From the NCBI GenBank assembly GCA_000165345.1, contig CM000435.1, positions 384,001 to 448,000 of the forward strand: DNA of 64,000 bases, read 5' to 3'. Shown here one piece after another: positions 24,797 to 46,830 of the stretch. Every line of letters starts with the position of its first letter. Within the stretch, counting starts at the first letter, position 1. A model generated the notes under the pieces. It was given only the letters and a program-made list of their open reading frames with translations. It searched no databases and had not been told where the DNA came from. Position numbers and translations under genes: made by a program.

Positions 24797-27700
24797 TTAG
24801 GAATGTTTAGAATGAGCGAGTTGATCGGGAGAGACCAAAACTAGCATCTCTTTAAGAAGCTTATGAATTTTTTCTGCAGAGCTTGACTGAATGCTATACA
24901 TCGAAGTAAGAGAATTTACCAGAGAATTAATAATATGGAAGTTGCAGAAAATGGCATTATGAACATCATCTGGAATGCTACTACCAGCATTGTCGTTTCT
25001 GCAAAGCTCAAACAGTGACACTACATAAGCTTCAATAATTTTTGGTAAGAATCCCACATTTGAAGAGTTTATTCCACTCTCCGACTTTGGGATGAAGTTC
25101 TTTGATTCTATATATTCTTTAGCTGAGCGATAGAAACCCTTTTGAATCAAAACAAATGCATGCACAATCTCATTCAAATATCTAACTTCATCCAACTTTG
25201 TCTGAACTGCAAGACCTTGTTGTAAATAAGAAGAATCTGTAAAAACTTTGTTTATGATGGTCTGTAATTTGTCAAAGAAAAGTTGTTGTCTCGTATTGAG
25301 AGTTGTAAAAGAATAACAAACTGGAAGTCTCAAGCAATCTAAAATTGTGTCCAAGACCTCCTCCAAGAGGTTTGCTTCCATGAAAAATAGAATTGAAGTA
25401 ATATAATGGCCCCTATTTTTAGCTAATCTTGCTATAATACTGTTTATTTCTTCACATATTTCAGAGTATTCACTTGTATTCATACTCTCATATGTATCAA
25501 ACTTAACAAAAGACTTTCCTTGTTCAATATAAGTATGGAAACTAGCACTATCAGTGTAATCATCTTCAACAATATCATGTAATAGACTGAACTCTACATA
25601 ATCCTGTAATATCTTTGTTCTCATTGATTCTGGGAAAAGCCTTGCAAGCTTTGCAACAAAAGGGAAGGGAATATTAAAGTTTTTAATTGATTTCTCAAGA
25701 ACTTCATAAAGGCTTAAAACCCTATCTTCTGGCTCAATCTTGTCAGAAAATGAAGAGAAGACCCCAAATTGATCATTTTCTATTTTTTTCCAAAGTGGAA
25801 TTAAACCAGCAACTGCTAAGTAAAGAACCCACTGAAGTTGTATGATTTTTAATTCATGATGACAAGAATAAATCCACCTCATTGCCTCCCCAAAATGTAA
25901 AGTGTAGCACATTAGTCTTGCCATATTGAGATTTGTCTGTTCTTTTACCATTCTATCATTCTGATTTAACTCATTCTTATCTTCTTGTCTAGATATAGTT
26001 CTTTCATGTAAATGAGAATTCTGGCTACGATTTAAGCTTAACTTAGTGCTTCCTGCATGAGCATCTCCTCTTCTGGATGTATGAGTCAATAAGAAGGGGC
26101 TAACCTCTTCTTGAGAGTGAATGGATAAATCCCGGCTTGATGATTCTCCTCCATAGGAAAATTGGTCTACCTGGTTTCGAAGTCTATTATACAAAGTATT
26201 TAATTCCTTTGCTGATTCATTGTCATCATTAGTCTTAAGGATAATATGAAGTTGATACCAAATATAATCTTCCATATTTGTATTAGGAAGAAGTTTCATC
26301 ACATTCAAAGACTGAGATGAAACGTTAATTATACTGAAAATAACTTGATAATAGGCTTGTTCTCTAAAGTCTGCATCCTGGCTTGGTTTTGAGTAAAACA
26401 TAGAATTCAACTCTCTATATTCTCTGCTAGAGTAAAGGTCTCTATTAAAGTCAAATTGTACGCATTGCTTAATCCAATTCTCCTCACCTTGAACAATATC
26501 ATCATATGTTTGAGAAATTAAGAGTGAACTACTTGTTGAAAGAAGTATTGCTGCTAAACATTTACATACCAAGGAGAAATGTTGAGGTATATGAGAGAAT
26601 TTGGATGCCATATCCCAAAGTATTTGACCAGACCCAATTCTAAATGCCCAGTAAGCCAAAAACCAATAGTGAACTTGTTCGCATGGGAAATTCATATTGT
26701 AATTGATATTTCGTTGGTCTGTTGACTCACTTATGAACAACTTTCTACAAAAATTGGTAAAGTTCTTTAAGGAAATAAGTACACTACTTCCTACTCCTGA
26801 GCCATATCTGTTTCCTAAGAAAATGTTAGAATTGTGATACAAAACATTATCAACAGCAGAAACTTCTAAAGCTCGAATTGAATTAGAAATCATCTGACGA
26901 GTTGTATAATTGTTCTTTGAGGAATTGCCAACTAATAGTGTCAAAAGTCTCCATAGTAATGAAATTTCCTCCTTGTATTCAACAGGAGCCAATAGAGAAC
27001 CCATTTCTTGAATCAACTGGATACGAGAATTGAAGGAAGAAAGACACATTTTCTGAATAGATACATATTTGTCAGAAGCTAAATCAGAAACAGTAACATT
27101 TGGAATAATCTCAGAAAGAACATAATAGTACTCATTAATAGAGTCTTCAGTTCTTCTAGATCCTCCAACTCCTTGCTCTTGTATTGTTTCAAAGTGTGGT
27201 TTTCTAGGATTAAGTAAAAGTCCAAATTCTGATTTGGTTGATAGATGAGAATTATCATTACAATATCCTGATACTATATCCTGTTTTTGACCATCAAGGA
27301 TCTTGGATTTTCTTTCATTCCATTCTGTGAAAAATAAATCAAAGACTTCTGAATAATAAATCTGGAAAATAGACGTAGTAGATTCATCTATCAAGTATGA
27401 AAGAAAATTTGAATAGCTAGTTTGAAGATACTTTGGCAGTCCTCCTGATCCTAACTCACTATAGTTGTCTTTATCCTGCCCACAGCCTCCTCTATGAGGG
27501 GCCCTTTTGAAATTAAAAGCTTCTGCTAAGTATCTCCTTTTAGAGTCATAACTTTCCAGTCTAGAGCTAAGATATTGGATTGAACGCTCAAGAGTTGTAA
27601 TTCCCAAGTCATTTACTATTCCCTTCCCACTACTTGCTCGTTTTGACACACCAAAATACCCCGGCTCTTTTTGCTTACTTCCAAGAGAATCCCTTGAAAC

Positions 27701-27805
27701 ATCCAAAAGCTCTTTAATTCCACTCCAAACCACAGGCTTTAGTATTGGAACTGTCCTATATGCTCTTTCTAGGGAGGAATTTATGTCCATTGAAAAGTTT
27801 GACAT
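24797..27805 (-). CDS. Large alpha-helical hypothetical protein of 1002 aa. Possibly a solenoid scaffold or nucleoporin-like, but unassigned.
   Basis: Intronless ORF with ATG at 27805. It has no enzymatic motif and is helix-rich with aromatic periodicity. An E2F-like site lies 66 bp upstream. Confidence 0.55.
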   Translation of the reverse strand: MSNFSMDINSSLERAYRTVPILKPVVWSGIKELLDVSRDSLGSKQKEPGYFGVSKRASSGKGIVNDLGITTLERSIQYLSSRLESYDSKRRYLAEAFNFKRAPHRGGCGQDKDNYSELGSGGLPKYLQTSYSNFLSYLIDESTTSIFQIYYSEVFDLFFTEWNERKSKILDGQKQDIVSGYCNDNSHLSTKSEFGLLLNPRKPHFETIQEQGVGGSRRTEDSINEYYYVLSEIIPNVTVSDLASDKYVSIQKMCLSSFNSRIQLIQEMGSLLAPVEYKEEISLLWRLLTLLVGNSSKNNYTTRQMISNSIRALEVSAVDNVLYHNSNIFLGNRYGSGVGSSVLISLKNFTNFCRKLFISESTDQRNINYNMNFPCEQVHYWFLAYWAFRIGSGQILWDMASKFSHIPQHFSLVCKCLAAILLSTSSSLLISQTYDDIVQGEENWIKQCVQFDFNRDLYSSREYRELNSMFYSKPSQDADFREQAYYQVIFSIINVSSQSLNVMKLLPNTNMEDYIWYQLHIILKTNDDNESAKELNTLYNRLRNQVDQFSYGGESSSRDLSIHSQEEVSPFLLTHTSRRGDAHAGSTKLSLNRSQNSHLHERTISRQEDKNELNQNDRMVKEQTNLNMARLMCYTLHFGEAMRWIYSCHHELKIIQLQWVLYLAVAGLIPLWKKIENDQFGVFSSFSDKIEPEDRVLSLYEVLEKSIKNFNIPFPFVAKLARLFPESMRTKILQDYVEFSLLHDIVEDDYTDSASFHTYIEQGKSFVKFDTYESMNTSEYSEICEEINSIIARLAKNRGHYITSILFFMEANLLEEVLDTILDCLRLPVCYSFTTLNTRQQLFFDKLQTIINKVFTDSSYLQQGLAVQTKLDEVRYLNEIVHAFVLIQKGFYRSAKEYIESKNFIPKSESGINSSNVGFLPKIIEAYVVSLFELCRNDNAGSSIPDDVHNAIFCNFHIINSLVNSLTSMYSIQSSSAEKIHKLLKEMLVLVSPDQLAHSKHS

Positions 27806-28857: not shown

Positions 28858-29119
28858 TTTTGTTATTTTATATCGTTTTTTTTATATATCTTTTTTTTCT
28901 AATTTATTATTTTTTTTTTTTCCTTTCCCATCTTGCATTTCTTTTTTCTTTCCCATCCAACTCTCTTATTCCTAATTCTTTCTTCCCAGCTCTTTCCTAC
29001 TTCTCTTTTATCCAGATTTAAGCTCTTTCTATCTCGAGCTCTCTGATTATCCAAACCAAAACTTATCCTTTATTTTTCCTCTTGAATTTATGTGGGTTTC
29101 CAAACTGTATATACCGGTG

Positions 29120-29133
29120 TTTTGGCGCCAACA
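29120..29133. promoter_or_regulatory. E2F-like palindrome TTTTGGCGCCAAC about 50 bp upstream of the NSUN2-like ATG. It lies inside the GTG-started track ORF.
   Basis: atataccggtgttttggcgccaacatc. Confidence 0.5.
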
Positions 29134-29178
29134 TCTGGTGTAAAAATAGACCAAGGAAAAGTGGGTTTATTGGTCAAA

Positions 29179-31227
29179 ATGGTGAAGGAAGAAAGTAACA
29201 AAAGAAAAAGAGACAACTCCAGGAGATCTGAGTTAGAAAATGTCTCTGTTGAAGGAGAACTTAAGAACAACGACTCATTTACTCCTTTTGAAAAGTCCAA
29301 TCCAATATTTGAGAATTACTATAGATTACAACAAATATGTACTGAAAATGAGTTCCAAGATTTCATTCATTCTCTTTCTTCTCAGCTTCCAACAACTCTA
29401 AGAGTTAATATTTCCCACCCATTGCACTCATTATTAGAGTTTCTTCTCAACGCTGAAACAGAAAAATTATATAATAATAATGCTATTTTCAACTTGAAAA
29501 GACTAAGTAAGAATTGTAAGTTATATTTGATAACTGAATATTCCAGAAAAATGCTCAAGAAAGAGTCTCAGCTAGCTAAGCTACACAGCTTCATAGTTTC
29601 TCAAGATGAGTTTGGAACCCTATCAAGTCAGGAACTTGTTTCCATGTTGCCTTGTATATGTCTTGATCCCAAACCAGGCCACTTCGTTCTAGATTTGTGT
29701 TCTGCTCCTGGAAGCAAATCTACTCAAATCTTAGATATGATTCTCTCATCAAGAGATGACCAACTTGGGATAGCATGCAAAAAAGGTTTATTAATTTGTA
29801 ATGATGTAAGCTCAAAAAGATTGGATACGCTCTCATCTCGTCTAAGTAGAATACCATCTCCCAATGTTCTAATCACTTGTATAGATGCATCTTTTTTTCC
29901 AACTTTTAAACCAAGTAAAACTACTATTACTTCTCCTTTCCAGTTTGACAGAATACTTGTAGATTCTATTTGTTCTGGTGATGGGACACTCAGAAAAAAT
30001 CCCGATATATGGACAATATGGAAGCCTGAAAAAGCTTTAAGCCTCCATAAAAAGCAAGTTTCCTTGCTTTCCAGAGCATTTAAACTACTAAAGAATGGAG
30101 GAAAACTTGTTTACTCAACATGCAGCCTAAATCCCATAGAGAATGAAGCAGTTATCTCTACTCTATTACGAAAGTTCCCCGATGCAAAACTTATAAGTCC
30201 AACAAACCTGGATGAAAGAGAATTTGAAATTTCTAAGGGTCTTAGGACATGGGGAGTTCATTTTGAACTAAAAGAACAAAACAAACTTCAACTTTTTGAT
30301 ACTTTAGATGAAGTCCCAGATACTCCTTTTAAGGAAAAGCTTACAGAAAGTATGTTCCCTGATAAAGAATGGTACGAGTCTGACAATTTCATGAGATGTT
30401 TTAGAGTATTACCCCATAGAAACGATACTGGAGGGTTCTTTTTTGCAGTTGTTCAAAAAAATGGACCTGATGAAATACCTCAAATCGAACAAAGATCAGA
30501 ATCCTCATCATGCAAATATGAGACAGTTGAAACAAAGGATTTGGAACCTATATTAAGCTTTTATGGGCTTGATAATCAGAATATACAAGGAAAACTTATG
30601 AAAGGTATTGAAAATTTTCCATCCAAAATTAAGAATCATTTAAATAGTATAAATTCTATAGAAAAATCATCTTTTGTAAAAAGAAAGTCTCATGATAAAA
30701 CTATTTATCTCATTGGGGAAGATGTCTCAAAGCTTATTATGAATTATAATCTAGAATTAGATCTTAGATCAGTAGGTATCAGAGCATTTGAGTATCTTAA
30801 AGGTAAAATTTCTGGAGATGGAAGATGCAAATGGAGAATTAACCAGAATTCATCCAGTTATTTAGTTAGATTAATGAAAAGAAGACTAATCTTTGTGAGT
30901 ATCTCATTACTAGATTTACTTGATGATGAAAATAAATTCATTGGAGGTAAAGAAATTTTGGATCTTGAAAAGAAAGGAGAACTTCTTGGGTTGAAAGAAC
31001 TTTGTTCTGGAATATCACAGGAGAAGAAATTAGAAAGTGGTGGAATTTTAGTAGTAATTTTACCTCCAAGTATTATAAATTATGGAGGAAACAGTAAAGT
31101 AAATCCAAACTTTAAAGAATTAGACCAAGGAGTCCCTCTCTCGGGAATTCTATATGAAGATTCAGGAATAAATTTTTTCGTTTCAAAGAATGAAATAAAA
31201 TCTATTAAAGAGTTAATATTAATTTAA
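29179..31227 (+). CDS. NOL1/NOP2/Sun-family RNA (cytosine-5)-methyltransferase, most like the NSUN2/Trm4 tRNA m5C methyltransferases.
   Basis: SAM-binding motif LDLCSAPGSKSTQIL. Motif IV is FDRILVDSICSGDGT. The catalytic TC motif is VYSTCSLNPIENEAV. The start is moved to ATG 29179, in frame with the track ORF at 29092, which begins at GTG. Confidence 0.8.
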   Translation: MVKEESNKRKRDNSRRSELENVSVEGELKNNDSFTPFEKSNPIFENYYRLQQICTENEFQDFIHSLSSQLPTTLRVNISHPLHSLLEFLLNAETEKLYNNNAIFNLKRLSKNCKLYLITEYSRKMLKKESQLAKLHSFIVSQDEFGTLSSQELVSMLPCICLDPKPGHFVLDLCSAPGSKSTQILDMILSSRDDQLGIACKKGLLICNDVSSKRLDTLSSRLSRIPSPNVLITCIDASFFPTFKPSKTTITSPFQFDRILVDSICSGDGTLRKNPDIWTIWKPEKALSLHKKQVSLLSRAFKLLKNGGKLVYSTCSLNPIENEAVISTLLRKFPDAKLISPTNLDEREFEISKGLRTWGVHFELKEQNKLQLFDTLDEVPDTPFKEKLTESMFPDKEWYESDNFMRCFRVLPHRNDTGGFFFAVVQKNGPDEIPQIEQRSESSSCKYETVETKDLEPILSFYGLDNQNIQGKLMKGIENFPSKIKNHLNSINSIEKSSFVKRKSHDKTIYLIGEDVSKLIMNYNLELDLRSVGIRAFEYLKGKISGDGRCKWRINQNSSSYLVRLMKRRLIFVSISLLDLLDDENKFIGGKEILDLEKKGELLGLKELCSGISQEKKLESGGILVVILPPSIINYGGNSKVNPNFKELDQGVPLSGILYEDSGINFFVSKNEIKSIKELILI

Positions 31228-31310
31228 GAAAGTAGTTAAGTATTTAAGTAAATATAATATAGAATAGGATAGAATACTAAGCCTAATATATAATATTAAG
31301 CGTGAGACAT

Positions 31311-32813
31311 CTAAAATCCCATACCTCCAAACATCTTCTGAAAATCTGGAGAACCCTGGAACTTATCCATTTCCCTCATCATATTCATCATATTTTGAGC
31401 TCCTCCCATATGTTTAAATATTCTGGGGTCAATAGCCTTTTGCATCTTTTGTATGAGTTGAGTAGGATTCTTCATAATAGATGACATATCCAATCCTCCT
31501 TTCTTTCCTAAACCAAGCTTACCAATCTGTCCAACCATCTTGGAGAACATTTTATGCTGAGAAAGAAGTTCTTGAACATCTTGATTAGAAGTTCCACTTC
31601 CCCTGGAAATACGCTCTACTCTGGAAGCATTAATCGTCTTTTCATTATCTAATTCACTTTCTGTCATAGAATCCATAATGACCATGAATTTCTTAAGCCT
31701 TTCTATACCCGCCTGTTCATCTTCTTTTGCAAGGATATTTGGACCCATTCCAGGAATCATAGACAAAAGAGCACTTGGAGAACCCATATTCAACATATTC
31801 TGGAACTGTTCGTACATATCTCTCAAAGTAAATATACCTTGAACAAGCCTATTAACCATATCTGGCTGTCTATCTAAGGGAACAACTTCGTTAATCTTAG
31901 CCATTAAACCACTAATATCTCCAAGTCCAAGTAATCTGGAAACGAATCCTTTGGTTTCAAAAGGTTCAAACTCATCAAAATGCTCTCCAGTTCCAATAAA
32001 GATGATTGGAGCTCCAGTTGCAGCAACAGCTGAAAGTGCTCCTCCTCCCTTGGCATGTCCATCTAATTTGGTAATAATTACACTTCCAACATCAACTGCA
32101 TTGCAGAATGCCATAGCTTGATCGTAACAAGCTTGTCCAATATGACTATCCATAACAAAAACAACATCGTCAGGATTAGTTTCCATCACAACTTGTTCCA
32201 TTTCCACAAATAAAGACGATTCCTGTTTGTGACGACCAGAAGTATCTACGATAATTAAGTCATAACCTTCTTTTCTGAATTCCCTAACACCATCACGAGC
32301 AATCTTGACAGGATCAGTCTCTGTATAACTTCCATAGAATGGAATCTTAACTTTTGTGGCGTTTTGTTTAAGCTGATCAAAAGCACCAGCTCTGAAGGTA
32401 TCAGCACAAACTAGAGCAGTTTTCCAACCTCTCCTTTGGTAATAGTTGGCAAACTTTGTACAGGTTGTTGTCTTTCCTGAACCCTGAAGACCAACAAAGA
32501 CTATAACATTGGACTTATCTCTCTGAGGAACATAGGGAGTTCTACTGGGAGTCAGTATATTAACTAATTCCTCCACAACGGCACTTTGAATCTGTCGGCG
32601 TCTATTTGAGCCTCCTACTGAATCTTCCTGTTCCACAGCTTTCTTAATATTGTTTCTAAGTTGAGCAACCAACTTAACATTAACATCTGCCTTGAGAAGA
32701 GCCGTTGCAATTTCCTTCAAGCACAGGTCTATAGCAGCTTCATCGGCAATAGTGCTGGATTGGAACTTCCGAATAGCCGAGGCGAGTTGACCTCCCAAAT
32801 CTGCCAAAACCAT
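31311..32813 (-). CDS. SRP54: Signal recognition particle 54-kDa GTPase.
   Basis: N domain, then G domain GLQGSGKTT and DTSGR, then a C-terminal M domain with Met-rich tail MGGAQNMMNMMREM...MFGGMGF. Confidence 0.9.
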   Translation of the reverse strand: MVLADLGGQLASAIRKFQSSTIADEAAIDLCLKEIATALLKADVNVKLVAQLRNNIKKAVEQEDSVGGSNRRRQIQSAVVEELVNILTPSRTPYVPQRDKSNVIVFVGLQGSGKTTTCTKFANYYQRRGWKTALVCADTFRAGAFDQLKQNATKVKIPFYGSYTETDPVKIARDGVREFRKEGYDLIIVDTSGRHKQESSLFVEMEQVVMETNPDDVVFVMDSHIGQACYDQAMAFCNAVDVGSVIITKLDGHAKGGGALSAVAATGAPIIFIGTGEHFDEFEPFETKGFVSRLLGLGDISGLMAKINEVVPLDRQPDMVNRLVQGIFTLRDMYEQFQNMLNMGSPSALLSMIPGMGPNILAKEDEQAGIERLKKFMVIMDSMTESELDNEKTINASRVERISRGSGTSNQDVQELLSQHKMFSKMVGQIGKLGLGKKGGLDMSSIMKNPTQLIQKMQKAIDPRIFKHMGGAQNMMNMMREMDKFQGSPDFQKMFGGMGF

Positions 32814-32960
32814 TAGGAATACTTTAAAATATGATTCTTCTTTAGGATAGAGCGGTGTTTAACTTATATTAGTTGTTAATTATGGCCAAATTTTGCCGAA
32901 TTCAGGAGGATTTTATTTCTTTGTTTAATTGCCTTTTCAGACAAATATAGTTGGGCAAGA

Positions 32961-32969
32961 TTTCCCGCG
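32961..32969. promoter_or_regulatory. E2F-type TTTCCCGCG about 150 bp upstream of SRP54.
   Basis: caagatttcccgcgactttt. Confidence 0.45.
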
Positions 32970-33423
32970 ACTTTTCAACAAAAATTCGAGGACCCCAGAA
33001 AAGAGGTAATTTGACAACTAACAAAGAAATCTGTTTCACACGTAAAAAAGAATGTGAAAACCTTCATAAGAAATGAGAAACATAATATTTTAAGAATTAG
33101 TAAAATCTTAGCAGTAACTTGCTATAGCAGTAGTTCAAATGCGTTATCAATTCTACTCGTAATGAATGCTATTACCTATTGTTCAAAAATATACTATAAC
33201 GGCTTTACTTGAGTTACACAGGGGCTTAGAGTCACAATTCCCAGCTCACGAATTTATTCCAACACTTGCCCTCGTAAAGACCTATTGCACACTGACTACC
33301 TGAGTTTTTCTGCAAGAAAAAAGAAAGAAAGCGCCAAAATTCAATTTCCTTGTTTTAAACTGATCTACACTGACCTGACCTTACCTTACCTGATTCTATT
33401 TTAAGAAAGGGAATGGAATTTTC

Positions 33424-34458
33424 TCAAAGTGAGAATGGGATAATTAAGTCAGAAGCATATTGAATTGTCTTCTCTCCATTAAATTTGGCTCTAAAGTAGT
33501 GGTAAGCAAAATCTAAGAGAATACCTATATTAAAGATTTGGACAGCTATATTATAATTCCTGGACTCATGAGGCATTCTAAATAAAGGCATTGAAATCCA
33601 GTAAAATAGTGCCAGAACCTTTAGTATGAATTCAAATACCACAAATAAGGCTAAATGCTCAGAAACTTTTCTTGGACTTTTAATATGGAACATATATAAT
33701 TGAGGAACAAGAGCTAATGCTCTAACTGCGTCATCATAAGCTAGGAGGGAAGTAATTAAACCGAGCCTTCTTCTGGTCCTAAACATTAAGAAAATGAAAG
33801 AGAGTGGAATGGCTAAAATGTAAAGTACAAGCCAGTATAAAGATCCAGAAATTAATCCTGTAATACCAGTAGGCTTGATTTTTCCAGCCCTTTCACCATT
33901 TCGCATCGCATCCTTATCTACAGATTTAGAACCCATGATAGAAAGTATCCTCACTAGAATATTTAGTCCAAAAGTATCATATTGATCTTCAATAGAATTT
34001 GAGAATTTTTTCCAAACAGTATATAAGCATAAAACCGATAAAAATGTAGAAATTATATCAATTTGGAATGACCAATCCAAAGTAATTCCAGTATATAAAG
34101 AAAACCAAACATTGAGAAGAGCGCCACAGAACTCAGAAAAACATAATGCACATAATGTTTGCATGGAAATTCCTAACGCACTTCTATCACTGTATACCTT
34201 GAAAGTGATCACTCCATAACAGGTAATGCACATTAAAGCATGGAACCAACTACAAGCATCGTGAACCCAGACATATTTGTTCAAAGATAGAAACAAAAAG
34301 TTCTTTTTATTAGAGCTTTCATTTTGTGAGGAATTTTGAGTGCTGGTGGTTCCTTGGTCTTCTGCTAAGATCTGGGAGATGTTTGCAAGGAAAATAACCA
34401 GTAAAAAACATGAAAAAATCACCTTTTTGCAAGAAGCACCTTTTAATATAGCCAACAT
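33424..34458 (-). CDS. Multi-pass membrane protein related to the ERD2/KDEL-receptor family. It has a hydrophobic N-terminal leader followed by a low-complexity Q/S/N segment.
   Basis: Seven or eight predicted TM helices. ALALVPQLYMFHIKSPRKVSEHLALFVVFEFILKVLALFYWI resembles the KDEL-receptor block [38 protein letters not shown]. The N-terminal 60 residues are not part of canonical ERD2. Confidence 0.5.
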   Translation of the reverse strand: MLAILKGASCKKVIFSCFLLVIFLANISQILAEDQGTTSTQNSSQNESSNKKNFLFLSLNKYVWVHDACSWFHALMCITCYGVITFKVYSDRSALGISMQTLCALCFSEFCGALLNVWFSLYTGITLDWSFQIDIISTFLSVLCLYTVWKKFSNSIEDQYDTFGLNILVRILSIMGSKSVDKDAMRNGERAGKIKPTGITGLISGSLYWLVLYILAIPLSFIFLMFRTRRRLGLITSLLAYDDAVRALALVPQLYMFHIKSPRKVSEHLALFVVFEFILKVLALFYWISMPLFRMPHESRNYNIAVQIFNIGILLDFAYHYFRAKFNGEKTIQYASDLIIPFSL

Positions 34459-34869
34459 TTTAATATATATTTTTTAGCTTCACACAAACCGATAACATTT
34501 TGAATCAGAGCACTCAAGCGCCAGTTGCATTATCCGGTTGAAAAAATTATTAAATTTTCAACACAATTTCGTAAATGACAAAATAAATTTATTAATATTT
34601 GAGGGGAAAAATCCAAAAAAAGCGGCTCATGTACAATCTATAGATATTTTTCCTCCTTCCCATGTATTTACATATTTATTCTTAATTTATTTCTCTCTAT
34701 TGCTTGATATTTCTTCGGTCACATGTTATACCTGGTTTGTGTGAATAACCGCTCAACTTAAATAATTATTTTAATTAAATATACCTGGAGGAATTCATCA
34801 AAAAAAACAAATATATGTATATATATTATATATAAACGAATATATAAAGTTATTGCTGTTAATATAGCA

Positions 34870-35142
34870 TTATTTATCGATCAATTTCTTAGAAATCCCG
34901 TAGTTTGTTTTAACATAGTTTGTGATGTCTTCAATCTTCACTTCAGATGAGTCTCTAGTTAACATTCTATGCACCCCTGATAATAAACTACTGTCTATAC
35001 ATTCCTCCACTATCATTCCTATTGCTTGAATTACTTTTCCATCTATTTTTTGACTAGGTTCGGACGATATTTTTGGTCGGTTTTGGATTGATTCCTTAAG
35101 AACTTTCGAGGTAATGTGAACGATTTCATTCCTAGTGTTCAT
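34870..35142 (-). CDS. Small 90-aa protein, possibly a histone-fold TAF10-like subunit.
   Basis: VIQAIGMIVEECIDSSLLSGVHRM...IEDITNYVKTNYGISKK loosely resembles the TAF10 C-terminal histone fold (…IANDALQH…LTMEDLTPALSEYGINVKKP). Weak. Confidence 0.3.
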   Translation of the reverse strand: MNTRNEIVHITSKVLKESIQNRPKISSEPSQKIDGKVIQAIGMIVEECIDSSLLSGVHRMLTRDSSEVKIEDITNYVKTNYGISKKLIDK

Positions 35143-36377
35143 TTTATGTCCTATTTTGTTTTTAGAAAACTCTCTAACCGATATTTATAGCCTTTTCAAT
35201 TTTTACTTGATCATAGACTAATTCGAATAATATTTTATCTTTTCATTTCTATTGTTACCTTGGTAATACTAAGTTAAAATGGCGGTAACTTTAAAAATTT
35301 TAATATATTTACTGCGTAATATTTTATCAATTCGAATCAGAAAATAATACAAAACAACACAAGTAGTCAAGAAGGAGCAATGACTCAGACGATTAGTTTT
35401 TTATTAAAATAATATAGGAAGAGAAAATATAAATTTTTTTCCTCCTCCCGTAGTTATAAATTCCCCTTAATTTTTTTGTTTTTAGAATTTAACGATCTGT
35501 TAAACCTGGAACCCTCATTTTCTTTCTCCCATATTCACTAATCATCCAAAATCAACCAAATTACGAGCATATTTGCATGCAAATATTCTTACACGTATTT
35601 CCTTTTTTTCATGTGGACAATTTTTTTATACCGGCATTGCAAATATGTCATAGAAAAAGTTGCATGCTGCAGCGGTAATGTCACAATGTTAGCTTGAAGA
35701 ATTTCTTAAAAAAATATGGGAATTTTGTGAAATTGGAGAAAATGAAAAATTAAGTAGAGATTGACATAAAATTAAAAGTATTAGGGGAATTAAGTGAGAA
35801 TGAGTTGACAATATTGAACAAATTCAACATAATTTATAAGTTTGAAATATGGTTTTTCTTTTTTAAAATGAGAAGCATTTTCGAATAAGAATTGGTCCCG
35901 GACCTTTCCTAGAAGAAAATAATAAATATAACAATAATTTGATATATATATAAGTAAAATTTCAATAAAATAAGGAGATTCTATAAAGTATTATATTTGG
36001 TGGCTATTTTTTTAATAATATTTTTAACTCATTTTAAGACAGAGGCTTGGGTAAAAAATAGAGGGAGTCATAAATATATAAATAGAGTTTAAATTTCCAG
36101 TATTAACAAATAAAATAAAAGGATCTTTAAAAGAAGAATTTTTTAAGTTTTTTGGTTTTTTTAATTTGTTATTTACTGAACTATCATTAAAGTGTGTGAT
36201 ATTATTCACCCAAGTAGGTAATTTAATATTAAAAAATTGGTGCAAGCTATAGTCGTATACAGAAGAAAAAAATCCATAAAATTTAAACTATAAGCATATA
36301 ATTTTGGTAAATTAAATCATTAATCTCTTATTATTCTTTGAAACAAACAGTCTGGATTTTAATTAACAAAGTTAGAA

Positions 36378-37355
36378 ATGTCAGCATTCATAGAAAGCGA
36401 GGTAAGTTAGTTTTTAAATACCATTGGAAACCTAACTAAATAATAAATACAATAAATTGAAGAGAGAAAAGTGTAAATTCATGTATTTTCTCTTCAATAC
36501 ATTCTATTTACTTGGCGTTTCTGATGATGATTATGAGAATATTCTTTTTAGCCTTTCCCTATCAGATAAAAAAAAAGGAATCATAGGCTAATGTGAAAAT
36601 TCTCTCAATTTTTAAATTAAAAAATAAATTTTAACTATTTAATAAACTTTTATTTGCAGAAATCAGAACATCTTTTATCAAGAGGAAGAAAAGTTGGAAG
36701 ATGCCCGGATGAACATTGTAGATCAAAATCTCCAAGCGGTCAGCCAGGAAAATCAGTTGAAGAATTATGTACATGCGGAAAACATATTTGCCCAGCTCCA
36801 TTACATGATTCAATTTCTTTTCAGGCTGAGAGCTCCTATAACACAGAATTTAAGCAGTGGGAACTACCAACTTTCCCAAAGCCAGTTCCAGAAGAGTTGC
36901 CAAAATCTATCCCTTTTGACTCTGATTCTAGTTACCATATGGACTATCGAAAGTGGGACTTACCAAAAAAGATTGTCAGACCACCAGAGCAATTCTCTGA
37001 ATCACCTGAAAATCGTGACTTCATGACAAGTTACCAAAGTAACTTTAAGCAATGGGAACTTCCAAAATTCAAGAAACCTCAGCCACCTCCAGAAGTCGTT
37101 TCTTCTCCTTATGGCAACATCAATTCAGTCTACAGAGAAAATTATCAGCAATGGGATCTCCCTAAAAAGATTGTTAACCCCTCTGAAATTTACAGTCCAT
37201 CTAAGGAGGATCGAAATTTTGAGACAGTCTACAGGAACTCCTATCAAGGCGTACAACCTCCCGTCTGCCCTGTTAGTCTTCTTCCCCCTATTCCTCATCC
37301 TCCTCCTGGCAGACATACTATGTTTTGGGATTCAGTCTCTAAAAATTGGTACTAG
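36378..37355 (+). CDS. Putative microtubule-associated repeat protein, SAXO/MAP6-like. It has an N-terminal Cys-rich segment and then 4-5 tandem aromatic repeats of about 28 aa. Two exons: 36378..36401 and 36660..37355.
   Basis: Exon 1 reads MSAFIESE and ends at a GTAAGT donor. The acceptor is TATTTGCAG. Cys-rich region: CPDEHCRSKSPSGQPGKSVEELCTCGKHICP. Repeats: SSYNTEFKQWELPTF, SSYHMDYRKWDLPKK, TSYQSNFKQWELPKF, SVYRENYQQWDLPKK, TVYRNSYQGV. A proline-rich tail follows. Confidence 0.5.
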
Positions 37356-38203
37356 GCATTTCAATTATCACAAAAAGATAAATCTAAATGAGAGGAGATT
37401 AGGAGAGGGTAGAATTAAATGAAGAAGATTTTAATATAATCACAACAAATCAGGAACTTTGGTCTATGACATGGCTTGCCATAATATTCTACACCTTCCT
37501 GATTATCCTCTTACAAGTTCCCGTCATCCAACTCATTCTCAAACTATTTTTTTTAGCTCTCACAGAAAGTACAAAAACAACTACAACTATTTCTAGAGAT
37601 ATTAAATTTATTAGTTTATTTTATGGATCCTTATTGCTTTGGTTTATTTCTTGCATGCAGCATTTCAACCTGTTACGCTTTAATTGAAAATGGTTCCATG
37701 CAATTTCTTAACAATAAATATTTACGTGCGCTTTTTTTTTTTTCCTTTATGCATTTAAATTTAGAAAACAGTCAATTTTAATAATAAATTACTCCTTGTA
37801 AGGCTCAATAAGAAATTGTCAATCGTATTATTTGCATGCAAAATGCCACCATTCGATTTCTTAATGTTTTTAAAACCCAAGTAATACTTGAAGCGAAGTA
37901 AAAAATTTGTTTATGCACACACAAAACAAGAAAGGAAATAAATCGCTAATTTTGTTCTTTATTTCCTTTTTCCATTCCCTCGAACTATGACTTATTTAAC
38001 CTCCACGAAATTTTCACAAACTCTACAAATGCAATTTTTTAGTCCTACAAATTCCTCAAATAGCGACTGAAAAAATCATCAAACTCTCCAGTTCTTCAAT
38101 TCTTCCAGCTCTTCTTATTCTTGTTCCATATAATAATTTATTAATTCTAATTTGAACATTCTAATTGCTGCTTAATAAATTGACTAGACATACGTGAGGA
38201 ATT

Positions 38204-38214
38204 TTAGGCGCCAT
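38204..38214. promoter_or_regulatory. E2F-like TTAGGCGCCAT about 100 bp upstream of exportin-7.
   Basis: ggaattttaggcgccataacccc. Confidence 0.4.
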
Positions 38215-38315
38215 AACCCCTCACAAAAAAAGCTGAAAAAAATAGAGGGAAATAGGACTACATTGGAAGCAAACGATTAAGTTAATAATTAATTCTCCAA
38301 ACGGAAGGATTTGTG

Positions 38316-41300
38316 ATGTCCTTAGATCCGAGTCAACTTTCGCAGCTGGAAGGGCTGTGTGAGTCTTTCTATGGGTAAGTTTACAAACAACTAGTGAAAG
38401 CAAAAAAGCGTTTTTAAAAGTGGGGTCTTAGGTTTTCACTAGGAATAGATCTTGTAAATTCTTGTGATTTTTAACTTTAATTTTTATTTTCTTAACTAAA
38501 ATTGCAGGGGAGATGTGAATCAGCAAAAACAGGCTCACGAGGTTTTGCTTCCCTTGACATGTAATCTTGGATGTCTGACTCAGCTCCAAGCTTTGCTTGC
38601 CCAAAGCAGCAATCCCCACGCCTTAATGTTTGCTGCAACAGGTCTTTCTAAGCTCTTTACGTCTTGTTGGGCTCAAATTCCAGATAATCAAAAAGAGGAA
38701 ACCAAAACATTTCTATTAAATTACCTCTATAAGTGTGGTCCTGATATGTTACGTTCAGCTCCTTATTTGGTTGGCCACTATGTTCGTCTTTTGGCTCAGT
38801 TGGTGAAATTCGGGCTTCTAGACTCCTTGTCTCCTAGGCCAACAATTACCGATCAAGTTGGGCAGTTTCTAAGTGCTTCCACTTCTCATTGGATCATTGG
38901 TTTAATAATCTTTACGACTTTGACTCAAGAGATGCAAACTTCTACAGGTTTATACTTTGCAAAGTATAGAAGGGCCGCAATACTATTCAGAGATACTTCT
39001 CTTCCAGTAATATTTCAGATTGCAATTAAAACTCTTCGTCAGTTCCACTTAGGAAGCGTTTCAGTTTCTACTCAGCATGAAGAGTATAGACTTCTTCGCC
39101 AGGTACTGCAATTAACCCTTTGCTGTCTTTCTTATGACTTTATGGGAACAGTACCTGATGAAACATCTGAGGAGCAGAATACAGTTATGATTCCCCATTC
39201 CTGGACAATTCTCAGGGAGGAATATATTCCCATAATATTCTTTGATATCTATGCAAAATGCTGCTCTCCGAACAGTTCCATGCCAGATTGTGCTTCAATC
39301 TGTCTCCAATGTCTCATCCTTTACTCCTCAGTTAGAAGATCCTTCTTCCCTACCCAAGCTGATAGAACTCGTTCTTTAGCAGCTCTAATGACTGGTACAG
39401 CTGGTATCATCCAAACTAAGATGGGCCTTGAACACGAGAGCTGCTATCATGAACTTTGCAGACTTTTGGGGAAGCTTAACACTGCAAACCAGCTCACAGA
39501 ACTCTCGTCTTCGGAAGCATTTGGACTCTGGATAGACCAGGTTTACAATTTTACTATTAAGTCTCTTGAGGAATGGAGCGTCTTACCAAACAGTAAGCAT
39601 TATCTCCTTGGTCTTTGGAGTCATATGGTTATCCCTTTACTCTACCAAGGGGATAGAGCTCCACAGAATCTTGAAAAGTATATCCATCATATAACAGTCA
39701 CCTTCATCCAAAGTAGGATGAAGCTTGCTGAGGCAATTGCTAGAGGCTCGGATGTAGAAGACCCTCTGGAAAGCGAAGTTGCAAGAACTGAGCAGCTTGA
39801 TGTTCTTTCTCAATTGAGTAGATGCCAATACCACGAAACTGCAGAATTCATTGTACAGCTCTTTGAACAGGTTACAGATGCAGCTAAAAACGGCAGCATT
39901 TCTCAGGATTGCTTTATTTCTCAAATTACCTGGTGTGTGTATATGCACGGAGCTTTAATTGGAGGACATAGCATTAAGTTAAGAAGACCTTTACTCCCTA
40001 GTGGCTCTTCATCCTCATCGGGAACTAGCAGACCAGATCAGAAGAACCAGGTATCACACCATGTTTTGAACGGAAAGCTCGCTAGACTTGTCTTTGGCCT
40101 CTCTCAACAAACTGACCAACTTCCAGAGACACCTGAGTCATTAGAATTGGCCTATCTCTATTTCTTGGAGCAGTTTAGAAAGGTTTGTCTCGGAGATTAC
40201 GCAAAACAATTTATTCAGCCTGAGACTGAGGACGCCACCTTGGCATCAATTCTGGGCGTCCAATCTGATGATGATGTTTTGAGCCTCATTATAAGCAAGA
40301 TTGGAAGGAATCTACAAGCCAAGAGTAATATGGAGAGTGTAGTTCAAAAGACTCTTTCTCTATTTCACGAATTGGTAGCTGGGATCTCGATCGTCCAGTA
40401 TACTGACAGAACTACCCATCTCATAGTTTCTGGACGACTTCTTCTCAAAAATGAACAAGTCAAGAAGATACTTTGCAACCATGCTTCTCCAGAGTTTGCT
40501 TTCCTGAACAATCCAAGATATGGTAGACATAGGACTTCTTACTATTTCACCCTATCAAAACTCTTGTTCTTAGAGTCAAAGGAGGAAGAGCCTGGAACTC
40601 AGCCTATAACAACTTTTGAAGACTTCATGAAACCTTTAGAGAAAGTTTTTACTTTGATCTGGGATGAAATAATCCTCGGAAACAATTCTTCGAATGGGGG
40701 GGGATATAATATTGGACAGTTCAGGGTTCCATTAATGGCTTTGGCAAGAGACTTAAGAGGCATTTGTATGGCTTGTGTAGGCCCTGAAAGCTACAACCAA
40801 CTTTTTAATTGGTTAGTAAATCGACCTAAACAGCTTGGACAGAGTAGAATTCATCTATTCACTTGGGCAGCTGACAAACTCTGGGAGGACTCTGATGTAA
40901 TGAATGCTTTGCTCAAGTTCATGGCCGAGTTTGTAGACAACAAATCCCAAAGAATAAACTTTGATAAAGCCTCTCCAAATGGAATTCTATTATTCAAAGA
41001 AGTTTCTTCATTAATTTGCACTTATGGCTCCAGAATCTTATCTAAACCTGATTCATCCTTCCAGAATATCTATAAGGAAAAGTATAAAGGTTTAGCTACA
41101 ACGTTAGCTATGCTCTGTCATGCTTTATCTGGAGGATATACAAATTTTGGAGTTTTTGAAGTTTATCAAGACCAATCACTGGAAAACGCTTTGCAACTTG
41201 CCTGTAGGATGTGTTTGGTGATTCCTGAGCATGATTTACAGTCATATATTAAGAGCCTCAAGTCTTATTATGAATTCTTAGAACTTGCAACTAGGTGCTT

Positions 41301-41898
41301 CATGTCCACATTCATCACTTCATTGGAGCCACAAAATCTTGCAACCATTTGTTACTCAATTGAATCTGGTCTGTGTGCTGTTGACAATGTGGTTCTTCTT
41401 GCCTGCTGTGCCACTTTGGATCATTTTGTAAGCTTCATTTTCACGACTCTTGAGAAGGAAAAGATTGTCCTTCCTAATGGAATGGGAGTTTCTAGAAATA
41501 ACGATAATATGAATTATGAACTCGGAGGAGGAAGCCCATCTCTAGTTCAGCAAGGGTCTACCCCTGAAGGAAAAGCTGTATATAGGTTTATGACTGAACA
41601 ACCCAATGCTTTGATTAGAATCATGCAGTTAATGTTCAATTTAATTACGACAGGGGATCTCAGTACTTGGACCTTTTCAAGGTCTTTGCTAGGGATGATT
41701 CTTCTATTTAACAATGAATTTCAGAACATCCAACAACAGCTTATTAACCAGCAGGTTGATGAAAAGAAAGCCAAGTATCAATCTCTTATTCAAGACCTTC
41801 TTAAAGGGACCGATGGAACCCTCTCAGCAGTTAGCAAAGATGCCTTTACAAGAAATCTCCATTTCTTTGCCCACTCAATTCGTTCAAATTCTCTTTAA
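38316..41898 (+). CDS. XPO7: Exportin-7 (RanBP16)-like karyopherin. Two exons: 38316..38374 and 38508..41898.
   Basis: Exon 1 reads MSLDPSQLSQLEGLCESFYG and aligns to the exportin-7 N-terminus (…LAQLENLCKQLYE…). The donor is GGGTAAGTT and the acceptor is AATTGCAG, in phase 2. The remainder is one 1127-aa HEAT-repeat ORF whose track start is GTG. Confidence 0.7.
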
Positions 41899-41984
41899 AA
41901 CTAAATTGTATTTCGTGAATTTTTTTTTGCTTCCACTTGCATCGTTTGCATGAATGCATGCACATGTTCCTTAAATTACAAAAC

Positions 41985-41994
41985 GGGCGGGAAA
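41985..41994. promoter_or_regulatory. Canonical E2F site GGGCGGGAAA (TTTCCCGCCC on the other strand) about 175 bp upstream of Rab7. Overlapping TGCATG copies lie next to it.
   Basis: gcatgaatgcatgcacatg...aaacgggcgggaaactacg. Confidence 0.5.
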
Positions 41995-42169
41995 CTACGT
42001 CGAGTCGGAATTAGTAGAGTAGGGAAAAATCAAAAAAAAAAAATCCTGTGAGCAAATATTATTTAATTTTCTAAGGCTTAAAAAAAAAAATTAGAAAAGT
42101 AGTCAAAACCATTAAAGATAATTTTGTTTCTTTTTGACTTTAGGTTGTTGTTTGCTAGATTGGGGAAGG

Positions 42170-43124
42170 ATGTCAATGGTCCAAAGTAAATCAAATCGCA
42201 AGAGAGTGCTTTTGAAGGTGATTATTCTGGGAGATAGCGGAGTTGGGAAGACTTCATTAATGAATCAGTATGTGAACAGCAAATTTTCGACTCAGTATAA
42301 GGCCACAATCGGGGCTGATTTTCTTACTAAAGACATCGTAATTGATAATAAGCTTGTAACTTTGCAGGTAAGTTAAGAAAGATTAAGTAGGTTGAGATCA
42401 AAACATCAGAGCTTTCAAAACAAATGAGATAAGAGGAGAGGAAAGGTAAAGTAATGGATTAGGTCTATTGCGATCGTTAGGAGGATGATTGATATTGAAA
42501 AAGCACACTCTTTGTATTTGAATGAAACTATGCAAGTTGCTTTTTTTTTTTGAATATATAGAAATATATATGAGCAAGTTGCGTTTGTGGATGATCTTCA
42601 GCTTATGGGTAATAATCTTTAATTGATTTATTAACTCTGAACCTTAAATGATTAATTTAAATTAATTCTTTTAGATTTGGGATACTGCAGGTCAAGAAAG
42701 ATTTCAATCTTTGGGAGTAGCTTTTTATAGAGGAGCTGACTGTTGTGCGTTGGTTTACGATATGACAAACCCAAAATCTTTTGAAGGATTAGATGCTTGG
42801 AGAGAAGAGTTTCTGATTCAAGCAACTCCAAAAGACCCAAACTCTTTTCCTTTTGTTGTTCTGGGAAATAAGTTGGATCTTGATCAGAAATCTAGAAAAG
42901 TTAGTTCCCAAAAAGCTTCAGCATGGTGTAAATCTAAAAACATTGAATACTTTGAAACTTCTGCAAAAAATGCAACGAACGTAGATGCTGCGTTCGAAGA
43001 AATTGGTCGAAGAGCACTTTATAGAGAAACTTCTGAAGATCAAGTCTACATTCCAGAGCCATTAACTCTAAATAATAATAACCAACAACACCACGAAATC
43101 GGATTTGGGGGCTGTTCTTGTTAA
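42170..43124 (+). CDS. RAB7: Rab7 small GTPase. Two exons: 42170..42367 and 42675..43124.
   Basis: [20 protein letters not shown] is the P-loop. The intron begins CAG|GTAAGT and ends TTTTAG. Exon 2 begins [24 protein letters not shown], which is the switch II block. C-terminal GGCSC is the prenylation motif. Confidence 0.9.
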
Positions 43125-43235
43125 ATCATTTATAAAGTCAAAAATAGCTGAGAAGTTGACAGAAAAGGAGAGTACTAATCTTTTTCTCTACTTGATCATA
43201 TAAATTCTCCTATTATTTGAATCTTTAAACTGCAC

Positions 43236-44264
43236 TTAATCAATTGGATCAATAATTCCTCCATCAGAAAGCTGAATTACGCACTCAGATTCTGGCAGAT
43301 GTGGAGAGCCATAAACTTTACATACTCTTTGCTCGCCCTTACCTTTTCTTAAACTAAGCCTTACATGTGAAGCATGACCAATTACGTGTCCACCAACAGG
43401 TTTTGCTACATTCGGCATGAAACTCATACCTCCTGCAGGGTCTGCCATAACATGATTTGTCATAACTATCGCAATATTGAATTGATCAGCCAATTTATTC
43501 AGCTTACTTAATGTTTTATTCAAAATCTGTTGTCTCTCTGCTAACTCTCCTCTTCCTGAGAATTCAGTTCTAAACAATGCAATAATAGAATCCACAATTA
43601 AGAGTGCGAACTTTTCTTCAATCATTTTTCCTGCTGCTGCGCTAATTAACTGATTCAAATGTTCGTGAGTATATGCTCTTGCGTACATGATATTGTCTAA
43701 AGCAACGTCTCCCTGAACACCAAATCTTTCTGCTATCTTTACAATTCTCTCTGGTCTGAAAGTACCTTCAGTATCAATAAAACAGACTTTCCCATTACCT
43801 CCATTCATTTCTAAAGGGAGTTGTGCTGCCACACATAAAGTATGGCAGATCTGAGTCTTCCCGCATCTATTTTCACCAAAAATTTCTGTAATACACATAC
43901 TTTCAAATCCGCCCATCAACATTTTGTCGAACTGCTCACTTCCTGTTGTGATTCTTAAGATATTTTGTCTTCTACTCATGACCTCACTTCCAGACTGAAA
44001 ACTTGATGACTGATCTAATTTTTGTGCTGCTTCTACAATCTTCTCAACTTTTGCCTCAGAAAGACCTTTAATATTACATAATTCCTTTTTGGTTGCTTGA
44101 ATAATGCTTAAAACTGTGCATAAACCTGCAGTTTTCAACTTATTAATATCTGCAACATTGATTCCTGCTGATTGTAATTTATCAATTTCTACAAATGCTT
44201 CTTCTTCAACTCCTTTAGCAGAAACTTGTTTAGCTACTGATTTTGATTGGCAAAAAGCACTCAT
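43236..44264 (-). CDS. DMC1: DMC1-type meiotic recombinase of the RecA/Rad51 family.
   Basis: N-terminal HhH: [22 protein letters not shown]...[22 protein letters not shown], which matches DMC1 (…GINVADIKKLKSVGICT…[22 protein letters not shown]). Walker A is GENRCGKTQ. Later motifs are [26 protein letters not shown] and [25 protein letters not shown]. Confidence 0.8.
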
Positions 44265-46054: not shown

Positions 46055-46450
46055 TTAAGCAGATGCAGAAGTGTATTTAGTAACAGCTTTAGTTCCTTCA
46101 GAGACTGCATGCTTTGAGAGCTCACCTGGAAGCATTAATCTAACTGAAGTCTGAACCTCTCTGCTTGATAAAGTCCTCTTCTTGTTATACTGAACCAACT
46201 TGACAGCTTCAGCTGAGAGACGATCAAAAACATCATTTATAAAAGAGTTCATGATACTCATGCTCTTCTTACTAATACCAGTCTCTGGATGAACCTGCTT
46301 CAAAACCTTGTAGATGTAAAGAGCAAAGGATTCTGTTCTCTTACGTCTCTTTCTCTTGCCACCGTCTGCTGGAGACTTTCCTGCAGTCTTCTTTGCTGCT
46401 TGCTGCTTCTGGGCTGGTCCCTTAATTGATTTACCACTTTTTCCTGACAT
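46055..46450 (-). CDS. H2B: Histone H2B.
   Basis: MSGKSGKS...[98 protein letters not shown]. The ATG is at 46450, whereas the track starts at an upstream TTG. Confidence 0.9.
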
Positions 46451-46804
46451 GGCGATTTTATTATTCAAATTTCAGAATTCTGAATATCTAAATTTTCCTT
46501 TTTTTTCAAGTGGAAAGCGCGGGCAAACTGGCCAATATATTATAATACCCACATGAAATTGCTAATTTACTCGTTTTTATGTGTTTTGTCTATTTTATTG
46601 CTATTCATGCAAAAAAAAAATCGAGGATGATCATTTGATTTATTTTATTCTGTTACAATCACATTTTAACATTAGTTCCTATATTTGTAGATACATTTGT
46701 GTTGAAGCTTCATTGTTTCATCTTCCAAATAAATTTTTAACATTTAAATTTCATGTTAGTTCAATTAAGTCCACTTAAAGCCCGAATATTACAGTTTGTC
46801 AGAA

Positions 46805-46830
46805 CTTTCCCGCATATTTGCATGCATGCA
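46805..46830. promoter_or_regulatory. Composite TTTCCCGC plus TTTGCATGCATGCA element in the divergent H2B/ThrRS spacer.
   Basis: ctttcccgcatatttgcatgcatgcaggc. Confidence 0.45.

Follow-up and report, generated by a model that had tools for sequence, protein, structure and literature searches.

Proteins of the SAXO family, such as TbSAXO and human SAXO1/2 (FAM154A/B; Pfam PF05217), are stabilizers of axonemal microtubules. They are defined by an N-terminal Cys motif 1, repeated 15-aa Mn-like motifs, and a last unit that carries a Cys-Pro pair (Dacheux et al. 2012, PMC3280300). Each Mn-like motif has T/S at position 6 and F/Y at position 12 and is followed by an inter-repeat of ~18–20 aa; the proteins have a high Pro content and, in the founding members, a basic pI of 8.25–9.05 (PMC3280300). 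Mn modules are also the microtubule-stabilizing elements of vertebrate MAP6/STOP and MAP6d1. MAP6 is vertebrate-specific, its N-terminal cysteines are palmitoylated, and its calmodulin-binding domains overlap the microtubule-stabilizing modules (PMC3280300). In 2012, Cryptosporidium was the sole non-flagellate named as holding a SAXO orthologue (PMC3280300).

An apicomplexan protein of this kind is Toxoplasma SPM1 (subpellicular microtubule protein 1; TgSPM1), which single-particle cryo-EM of cortical microtubules resolves as a filamentous microtubule inner protein in the lumen (PMC8144581). Each of its 32-residue R domains holds one Mn motif and covers one 8-nm period along a single protofilament, and the helix from position 6 to position 12 binds the intradimer α/β-tubulin interface (PMC8144581). 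The protein sits between tubulin and TrxL1/TrxL2 and is needed for TrxL1/2 localization, and head-to-tail chaining through its N- and C-terminal domains has been proposed (PMC8144581). At least four repeats are needed for microtubule localization in Toxoplasma (PMC12905489, PMC8144581). Single SPM1 knockouts in Toxoplasma and Plasmodium berghei show no growth defect under standard conditions; the knockout microtubules shorten under chemical or cold stress, an effect that is most marked if there are additional losses (PMC12905489). In Cryptosporidium, SPM1 is conserved (PMC12905489); TrxL1 is found in most apicomplexans, and TrxL2 is absent from Cryptosporidia (PMC8144581). A related arrangement has been described for Chlamydomonas FAP363, an Mn-motif filament that repeats every 8 nm and places a short helix where the two tubulins of a dimer meet (PMC8144581).

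Gene structure and repeat organization

The gene considered here lies on the plus strand at positions 36378–37355 of the window, by which we mean the whole 64,000-nt stretch of C. parvum DNA that was analysed. It contains two exons. Exon 1 (36378..36401, +) is 24 nt long and consists of the ATG and seven further codons (MSAFIESE); it is followed by a 258-nt intron (36402..36659, +; GTAAGT...TTGCAG) with a GC content of 23%, in an AT-rich window of 33% GC, and by exon 2 (36660..37355, +), which ends in a TAG stop at 37353–37355. The spliced product of 239 aa is identical in an exact-sequence look-up to the deposited C. parvum protein QOY40481.1/CPATCC_0007420, “STOP repeat protein”, and this exact match bears out the 8-codon first exon that an earlier note on this DNA, made from the sequence alone, had proposed. 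The C. hominis protein differs from it by one residue. An older, intron-less model (XP_628346.1/EAK90604.1) is annotated as “STOP repeat protein involved in microtubule stabilization”. Scans of the whole window for tRNA genes and Rfam families gave no match.

From N- to C-terminus, the protein consists of a head with several cysteines, four W[ED]LP units, a degenerate fifth unit, and a Pro-rich tail, the last two of which were also correctly recognized in the earlier reading. Its Pro content of 13.8% falls inside the SAXO range, and its calculated pI is 7.04, compared with 8.25–9.05 in the SAXO founding members. Cysteines occur at residues 23, 28, 45, 47, 52, and 211, which gives C-x4-C followed by C-x-C-x4-C in the head and agrees with the Cys-rich pattern (C-x4-C…C-x-C…C) read from the DNA beforehand. 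The second of these clusters lies in an N-terminal conserved domain at aa 25–53 (DEHCRSKSPSGQPGKSVEELCTCGKHICP; 36708..36794, +), which contains a partial form of the SAXO-type Cys motif 1. Relative to the published form of that motif, [GR][KT]CVC[ESR][LI]CTCGK[HC][KR]C, the segment GKSVEELCTCGKHIC agrees at 12 of 15 positions, but only three of the five cysteines are kept; TgSPM1 keeps four.

The repeat array occupies the rest of the protein. Cores of the form Y-x3-[FY] are found at aa 68, 100, 133, 166, and 199, with spacings of 32, 33, 33, and 33 aa, so the period is 32–33 aa and not the ~28 aa given in the earlier note. Unit R1 (aa 61–92; 36816..36911, +) consists of the Mn motif SFQAESSYNTEFKQW and a linker of the LPF-like type, with S66 at Mn position 6 and F72 at position 12. 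R2 (aa 93–125; 36912..37010, +) has the Mn motif PFDSDSSYHMDYRKW and its linker, with S98 and Y104 at the same two positions. R3 (aa 126–158; 37011..37109, +), of the DRDF-like type, has NRDFMTSYQSNFKQW with its linker and carries T131 and F137, and R4 (aa 159–191; 37110..37208, +) has YGNINSVYRENYQQW with its linker and carries S164 and Y170. The last segment (aa 192–239, DRNFETVYRNSYQGVQPPVCPVSLLPPIPHPPPGRHTMFWDSVSKNWY; 37209..37352, +) combines R5, with T197 and Y203, and the C-terminal conserved domain. Both Mn-defining residues are therefore present in all five units, and the Cys-Pro pair, C211-P212, comes after the fifth and last core, as in the SAXO definition.

The periodicity is statistically strong. 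W[ED]LP occurs four times in the protein, and only 0.49% of composition-preserving shuffles hold even one copy. BLOSUM62 autocorrelation of residues 56–239 peaks at lags of 65, 66, and 33, with z = 7.9 relative to 2000 shuffles. Pairwise comparison of the cores places 10 of 20 residues in common between R1 and R3 and likewise between R2 and R4, against 7 of 20 for neighbouring units and 6 of 20 for R1 and R4. Because R1 is most like R3 and R2 most like R4, the array is a duplicated two-unit block followed by a terminal unit. Identity between the units at the DNA level is only 0.33–0.57, a value that led us to reject a recent tandem duplication of the DNA and that indicates that the repeats are old and have been kept at the protein level. 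The count of four W[ED]LP units and a fifth thus holds, but the description of the units as near-identical does not, with only 6–10 of 20 core residues in common and the DNA identities just given. The literal unit pattern proposed for the array fits three units, and unit 4 departs from it in reading SVY where [ST]Y had been expected.

Relationship to SPM1 and SAXO proteins

Searches of solved structures with phmmer return Toxoplasma SPM1 as the best match (7tnq/7tns, 7miz; E = 2e-23), in four collinear stretches that run over the head, the repeats, and the last 43 residues and cover 90% of the query. Human SAXO1 (8ou0_D) is next at E = 2e-11, and the chain named “DMIP1 | STOP family protein” (9e78) scores 3.9e-4. 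BLASTP against TgSPM1 gives a single alignment with 31% identity from residue 25 to the C-terminus. In Pfam, the top match is SAXO1-2 (PF05217) at 19.5 bits (E = 5.4e-4), below the gathering cut-off of 26.5 bits. Long metazoan proteins underlie this model, and TgSPM1 itself has no match whatever in Pfam, so the sub-threshold score does not separate the C. parvum protein from SPM1.

A profile built from nine Cryptosporidium sequences and searched against 1.84 billion representatives recovers 327 proteins at E <= 1e-3, 95 of them at <= 1e-10. The best named matches outside Cryptosporidium are from the archigregarine Filipodium, Colpodella, Siedleckia, P. berghei (“subpellicular microtubule protein 1”), and Eimeria, together with TgSPM1 (2.5e-29) and metazoan SAXO proteins. 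An annelid protein matched at 5e-21 itself scores 186.5 bits on PF05217. A head of the form …V[DE]ELC.C..H.CP and an end of the form CPV..LP…FWD…K.WY are common to the apicomplexan and colpodellid homologues. Residues 25–52 (to 53) of the N-terminal domain align with TgSPM1 109–136, and residues 197–239 align with its C-terminus, 309–351 (CPVS.LP ... FWD...K.WY). The N-terminal domain (DE..R..SPS..PG..V[ED]ELC.CG.H.C) precedes the repeats, as it does in SPM1, is largely invariant in the nine Cryptosporidium sequences, and is also found in the P. berghei, Eimeria, Colpodella, and Siedleckia homologues.

The protein therefore has the sequence features by which SPM1 is recognized: the N-terminal domain, at least four repeats of ~32 aa with one Mn motif each, the C-terminal domain, and orthology. 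Apart from the Pfam cut-off, and with Cys motif 1 only partly matched and the pI below the described range, the sequence tests place it as an ordinary member of SPM1/SAXO, and specifically of SPM1, the branch of SAXO found in apicomplexans. The earlier note had called it SAXO/MAP6-like, an assignment to be given up if profile similarity to these families and conservation of the W[ED]LP repeats in orthologues were both lacking. The assignment stands, because the solved-structure matches support it, the orthologue profile recovers both apicomplexan SPM1 and metazoan SAXO, with PF05217 alone remaining sub-threshold, and the repeats are kept in orthologues.

Comparison with TgSPM1 (TGME49_263520; PDB 7MIZ, 7TNQ) shows a collinear head, tandem Mn repeats, CPVS.LP after the last repeat, and a terminal FWD...K.WY in both proteins. 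Several differences are also apparent. The period is exactly 32 aa in TgSPM1 and 32–33 aa in the C. parvum protein, which has five Mn cores rather than six and is without the ~100-aa N-terminal extension of TgSPM1. The first Cys of the TgSPM1 C-V-E-E-L-C cluster is a Ser in C. parvum, and the Mn helix is followed by W-[DE]-L-P, whereas TgSPM1 has K-P-L-P. Finally, units of the LPF and DRDF types alternate in the C. parvum protein, whereas those of TgSPM1 are homogenized.

SAXO proteins share with the C. parvum protein part of Cys motif 1, the Mn-like motifs, Cys-Pro in the last unit, and a high Pro content, and metazoan and gregarine SAXO-like proteins also share the Trp three residues after the Mn F/Y. 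The C. parvum protein differs in being much shorter, with 5 units against 12 in MmSaxo1 and PfSAXO (PMC3280300), and in its neutral pI and sub-gathering Pfam score. Because Cryptosporidium has no flagellum at any stage (PMC3280300, PMC12905489), the axoneme cannot be the target. FAP363 likewise differs, in that its six motifs extend over two protofilaments, in axonemal doublets. With vertebrate MAP6/STOP and MAP6d1, the likeness lies in the Mn microtubule-stabilizing module, the source of the “STOP repeat” annotation. The C. parvum head, however, partly matches SAXO motif 1, which is reported to be absent from MAP6 (PMC3280300), and for this reason the protein is not filed as MAP6.

Conservation within Cryptosporidium

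The nine aligned orthologues comprise C. parvum, C. meleagridis, C. ubiquitum, the chipmunk genotype, two sequences from sequencing-run assemblies, C. felis, C. ryanae, and C. serpentis, with identities of 97–50%. Only one protein is recovered per Cryptosporidium species. Within the genus, very little changes in the CTCGKHxCP block or in the C-terminal domain with its last ~30 residues. The aa 25–53 domain contains the longest invariant runs of the head, and CTCGKHxCP is the only invariant part of its Cys region. C. serpentis has Asn and Tyr in place of C23 and C28, so only the second Cys cluster is a conserved feature. W.LP is kept in unit 1 of every species in the alignment, in units 2 and 3 of all but single sequences (unit 3 of C. 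ryanae reads WDIK), and in unit 4 everywhere but in C. serpentis, where the whole unit has decayed.

The locus is conserved as well. A KDEL-receptor-like gene (minus strand), SPM1, and the exportin-7 gene (plus strand) stand in the same order in the window and in C. felis, C. ryanae, and C. serpentis. The intron position and the short first exon are also conserved in these three species: C. ryanae has an 8-codon first exon and a 234-nt intron, C. serpentis an 11-codon first exon and a 53-nt intron, and C. felis an unannotated MSAFVESE exon with a 52-nt intron.

Flanking sequences

The gene-poor flanks and their palindromic sites had been read in the earlier note as a hint of stage-specific regulation. 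The sites themselves are present in both flanks. The 12-mer TTTGCATGCAAA has exactly two occurrences in the window, at 35572 and 37831, and these lie on either side of the gene. The first is inside an 18-nt perfect palindrome of the AP2_1 type, ATATTTGCATGCAAATAT (35569..35586), located in the divergent spacer 792 nt upstream of the gene’s ATG and 427 nt from the ATG of the minus-strand neighbour. The second (37831..37842) is found 476 nt beyond the stop codon, with ~475 nt separating it from the exportin-7 gene downstream, and a further TGCATGCA is found downstream of the gene at 37652–37659. The 8-mer TGCATGCA is the AP2_1 motif bound by the ApiAP2 protein cgd2_3490, and the Plasmodium orthologue of this protein controls sporozoite genes (PMC3734150).

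That the only two exact 12-mers of the window flank this gene, and that their core is bound by a factor with such an orthologue, would be expected if the palindromes were dedicated stage-specific control elements of the SPM1 gene, a reading that we consider unlikely. The window contains 16 copies of TGCATGCA where 0.8 are expected; 15 of these copies are intergenic, and the sequence thus behaves as a general promoter motif. Genome-wide, an excess of it is seen upstream of ~1,034 genes that fall into 55 co-expression clusters (PMC3734150). Neither TGCATGCA nor GCATGC is present in the upstream spacer of C. felis or C. ryanae, and the only GCATGC site in that of C. serpentis abuts the divergent neighbour gene. 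GCATGC sites do recur in the SPM1-to-exportin-7 spacer of C. felis and C. ryanae; because of this and of their position ahead of the exportin-7 gene, the downstream sites more likely serve that gene. The flanks measure 1235 nt and ~960 nt, within a window range that reaches 3126 nt around a median of 644 nt. Because the motif is genome-wide, the upstream sites are not kept in the three other species, and the flank lengths are within range, the regulatory hint is weak and non-specific, and gene-specific regulatory palindromes were rejected.

Proposed function

The gene is very probably the C. parvum orthologue of SPM1, related to SAXO/MAP6 and acting by a luminal microtubule-stabilizing mechanism. 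Identity, architecture, homology, conservation, and synteny are direct observations of the present analysis. A luminal location, an 8-nm register, TrxL1 recruitment, and a stabilizing role would follow from the structures and genetics of the Toxoplasma protein. The C. parvum protein has the same period, defining residues, and terminal domains as TgSPM1, which suggests that it too would staple microtubules longitudinally from the luminal side.

By this mechanism, the protein would be an extended polypeptide, disordered alone, that follows a single protofilament on the inner wall of stable microtubules. Each 32–33-aa unit would span one 8-nm tubulin dimer, so that five units may cover ~40 nm, with the Mn helix, from Ser/Thr at position 6 to Phe/Tyr at position 12, placed at the intradimer α/β-tubulin interface. 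The conserved head and tail could serve in head-to-tail chaining and in targeting to the apical polar ring, and the protein may dock the thioredoxin-like partner TrxL1. The expected outcome would be that the few rigid microtubules of the parasite are stiffened and stabilized.

An AlphaFold2 model computed on the nine-sequence alignment is essentially unfolded (pLDDT 52.3, pTM 0.15) and has a few short helices, with those at aa 103–106 and 198–204 on the Mn cores of units 2 and 5. This predicted near-absence of fold, with short helices on Mn cores, is consistent with a filamentous microtubule inner protein that takes up its fold only when bound to the lattice. A search of the literature found no localization, knockout, structure, or expression data for the Cryptosporidium protein, no cgd identifier for the gene, and no paper on a Cryptosporidium “STOP repeat protein”.

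The likely substrates are the long and short rigid microtubules of the sporozoite, and apical structures and the microtubule cage of the microgamete are also possible. In C. parvum sporozoites, the microtubules are both stable and rigid (PMC8464796); 2–3 of them are long, and many measure 100–200 nm (PMC10412601). The SPM1 orthologue might instead act mainly on the reduced conoid, the central microtubules, or the cage around the microgamete nucleus, and not on the subpellicular array. Toxoplasma SPM1 also lines the intraconoidal microtubules and conoid fibres, luminally (PMC12819142), long subpellicular microtubules are few in C. parvum (PMC10412601, PMC8464796), and the aflagellate male gametes of this species carry a microtubule cage (PMC12905489). 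We nevertheless regard such a main site as distinctly unlikely, given that almost every protofilament of the subpellicular microtubules in Toxoplasma carries SPM1 and that the stable microtubules of C. parvum sporozoites offer the obvious substrate.

A further idea concerns what sets the Cryptosporidium protein apart from other SPM1 proteins. The Trp and the DRDF-type units are also seen in gregarine, colpodellid, and metazoan relatives and look ancestral, not new. Cryptosporidium SPM1 might keep an ancestral-looking SAXO-like Trp at Mn position 15 and a two-unit super-repeat of 65–66 aa that were lost in coccidian and Plasmodium SPM1. If each unit spans 8 nm, the super-repeat could impose a 16-nm luminal register, and the protein might dock a different set of partners in a parasite with only 2–3 long microtubules and no TrxL2; we regard this reading as improbable.

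The earlier note and the 2004 annotation imply a classical external MAP that binds the outer lattice, as was first thought for MAP6/STOP. Mn modules were indeed defined as microtubule-binding and stabilizing in cell-based expression assays (PMC3280300), and sequence alone does not fix which face of the lattice is bound. An external position is nonetheless very improbable, since the closest structure-bearing homologue, TgSPM1, has been resolved inside the lumen, where the related FAP363, another protein with Mn motifs, also lies (PMC8144581), and SPM1 is luminal in conoid fibres and intraconoidal microtubules as well (PMC12819142). That the gene is a chance low-complexity, proline-rich ORF, for which nothing more than the AT-rich context and the short first exon can be cited, was rejected as virtually inconceivable in view of its exact match to the deposited protein, the orthologues at 50–97% identity with conserved intron position and synteny, the strong repeat statistics, and the strong homology to the solved SPM1 and SAXO1 chains.

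Implications

Public annotation has carried the gene and the functional idea since C. parvum was first sequenced, and the conservation of SPM1 in the genus is noted in reviews. The corrected 32–33-aa period, the two-unit duplication pattern, and the retained SAXO-like Trp and DRDF-type units are newly noted here, and are only mildly new. Tubulin-based structures are considered drug targets in C. parvum. The corrected two-exon model and the five-unit map provide a clean tagging target for the rigid microtubules of C. parvum sporozoites, and the map may aid in reading luminal densities in cryo-ET of this parasite.

AP2_1 motifs and gene content of the window

The sequence TGCATGCA, already known from apicomplexan promoters as the AP2_1 motif, is ~20-fold enriched across window positions 1–64000, with 16 sites against 0.8 expected. 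All but one of these sites (15 of 16) are intergenic, the sole exception being the site at 25157, which falls within the ORF at 24797–27805 (− strand). Three overlapping TGCATGCA sites form a (TGCA)4 run at 2852–2867, in intergenic sequence upstream of the ORF starting at 4447. A histone H2B-like ORF (46055–46468, − strand) sits in a 3.1-kb stretch that appeared gene-free under a 150-aa ORF cut-off, and the spacer between this ORF and its divergent neighbor, the threonyl-tRNA synthetase gene (47391–49682), carries a doubled TGCATGCATGCA at 46819–46830. A 2.7-kb gap contains an 80-aa ORF (51322–51564, − strand) with the helix-hairpin-helix-like sequence LPGIGPKMA. This ORF probably belongs, as a single exon, to an endonuclease-III-like gene with several exons. 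Elsewhere, the 3' ends of two long ORFs, 14814–17279 (+ strand) and 17250–21626 (− strand), converge and share 30 nt (17250–17279).

The SPM1 gene is adjoined by housekeeping genes, encoding an NSUN2-like RNA methyltransferase, SRP54, a KDEL-receptor-like protein, exportin-7, and Rad51 (29092–44264); no cytoskeletal gene cluster was seen among the neighbors in this interval.

SPM1 gene models and repeat content

The spliced C. parvum SPM1 gene agrees with the newer 239-aa model. The older model, XP_628346.1 (244 aa), begins KINFNYLINFYLQ... without a start Met and includes the 3' part of the intron as coding sequence (window 36624–36659). In C. felis (JABXOJ010000011.1), the conserved 8-codon exon 1 is missing from the deposited 230-aa model, which starts MEHLL. 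An exon encoding MSAFVESE is present at positions 2922–2945 of the C. felis locus, followed by a 52-nt GTAGGT...TAG intron, and splicing over this intron gives an in-frame join and a 239-aa product.

Alignment of nine Cryptosporidium SPM1 orthologues reveals two departures in C. serpentis, a gastric-clade species. First, the Y-x3-Y-x2-W-D-L-P signature is missing from Mn unit 4 (alignment columns ~160–180; gene at 3001–3773 of the C. serpentis locus). Second, other residues take the place of both cysteines of the first pair, C23 and C28. Four intact Mn units are retained, equal to the reported minimum of four repeats needed in Toxoplasma (PMC12905489, PMC8144581).
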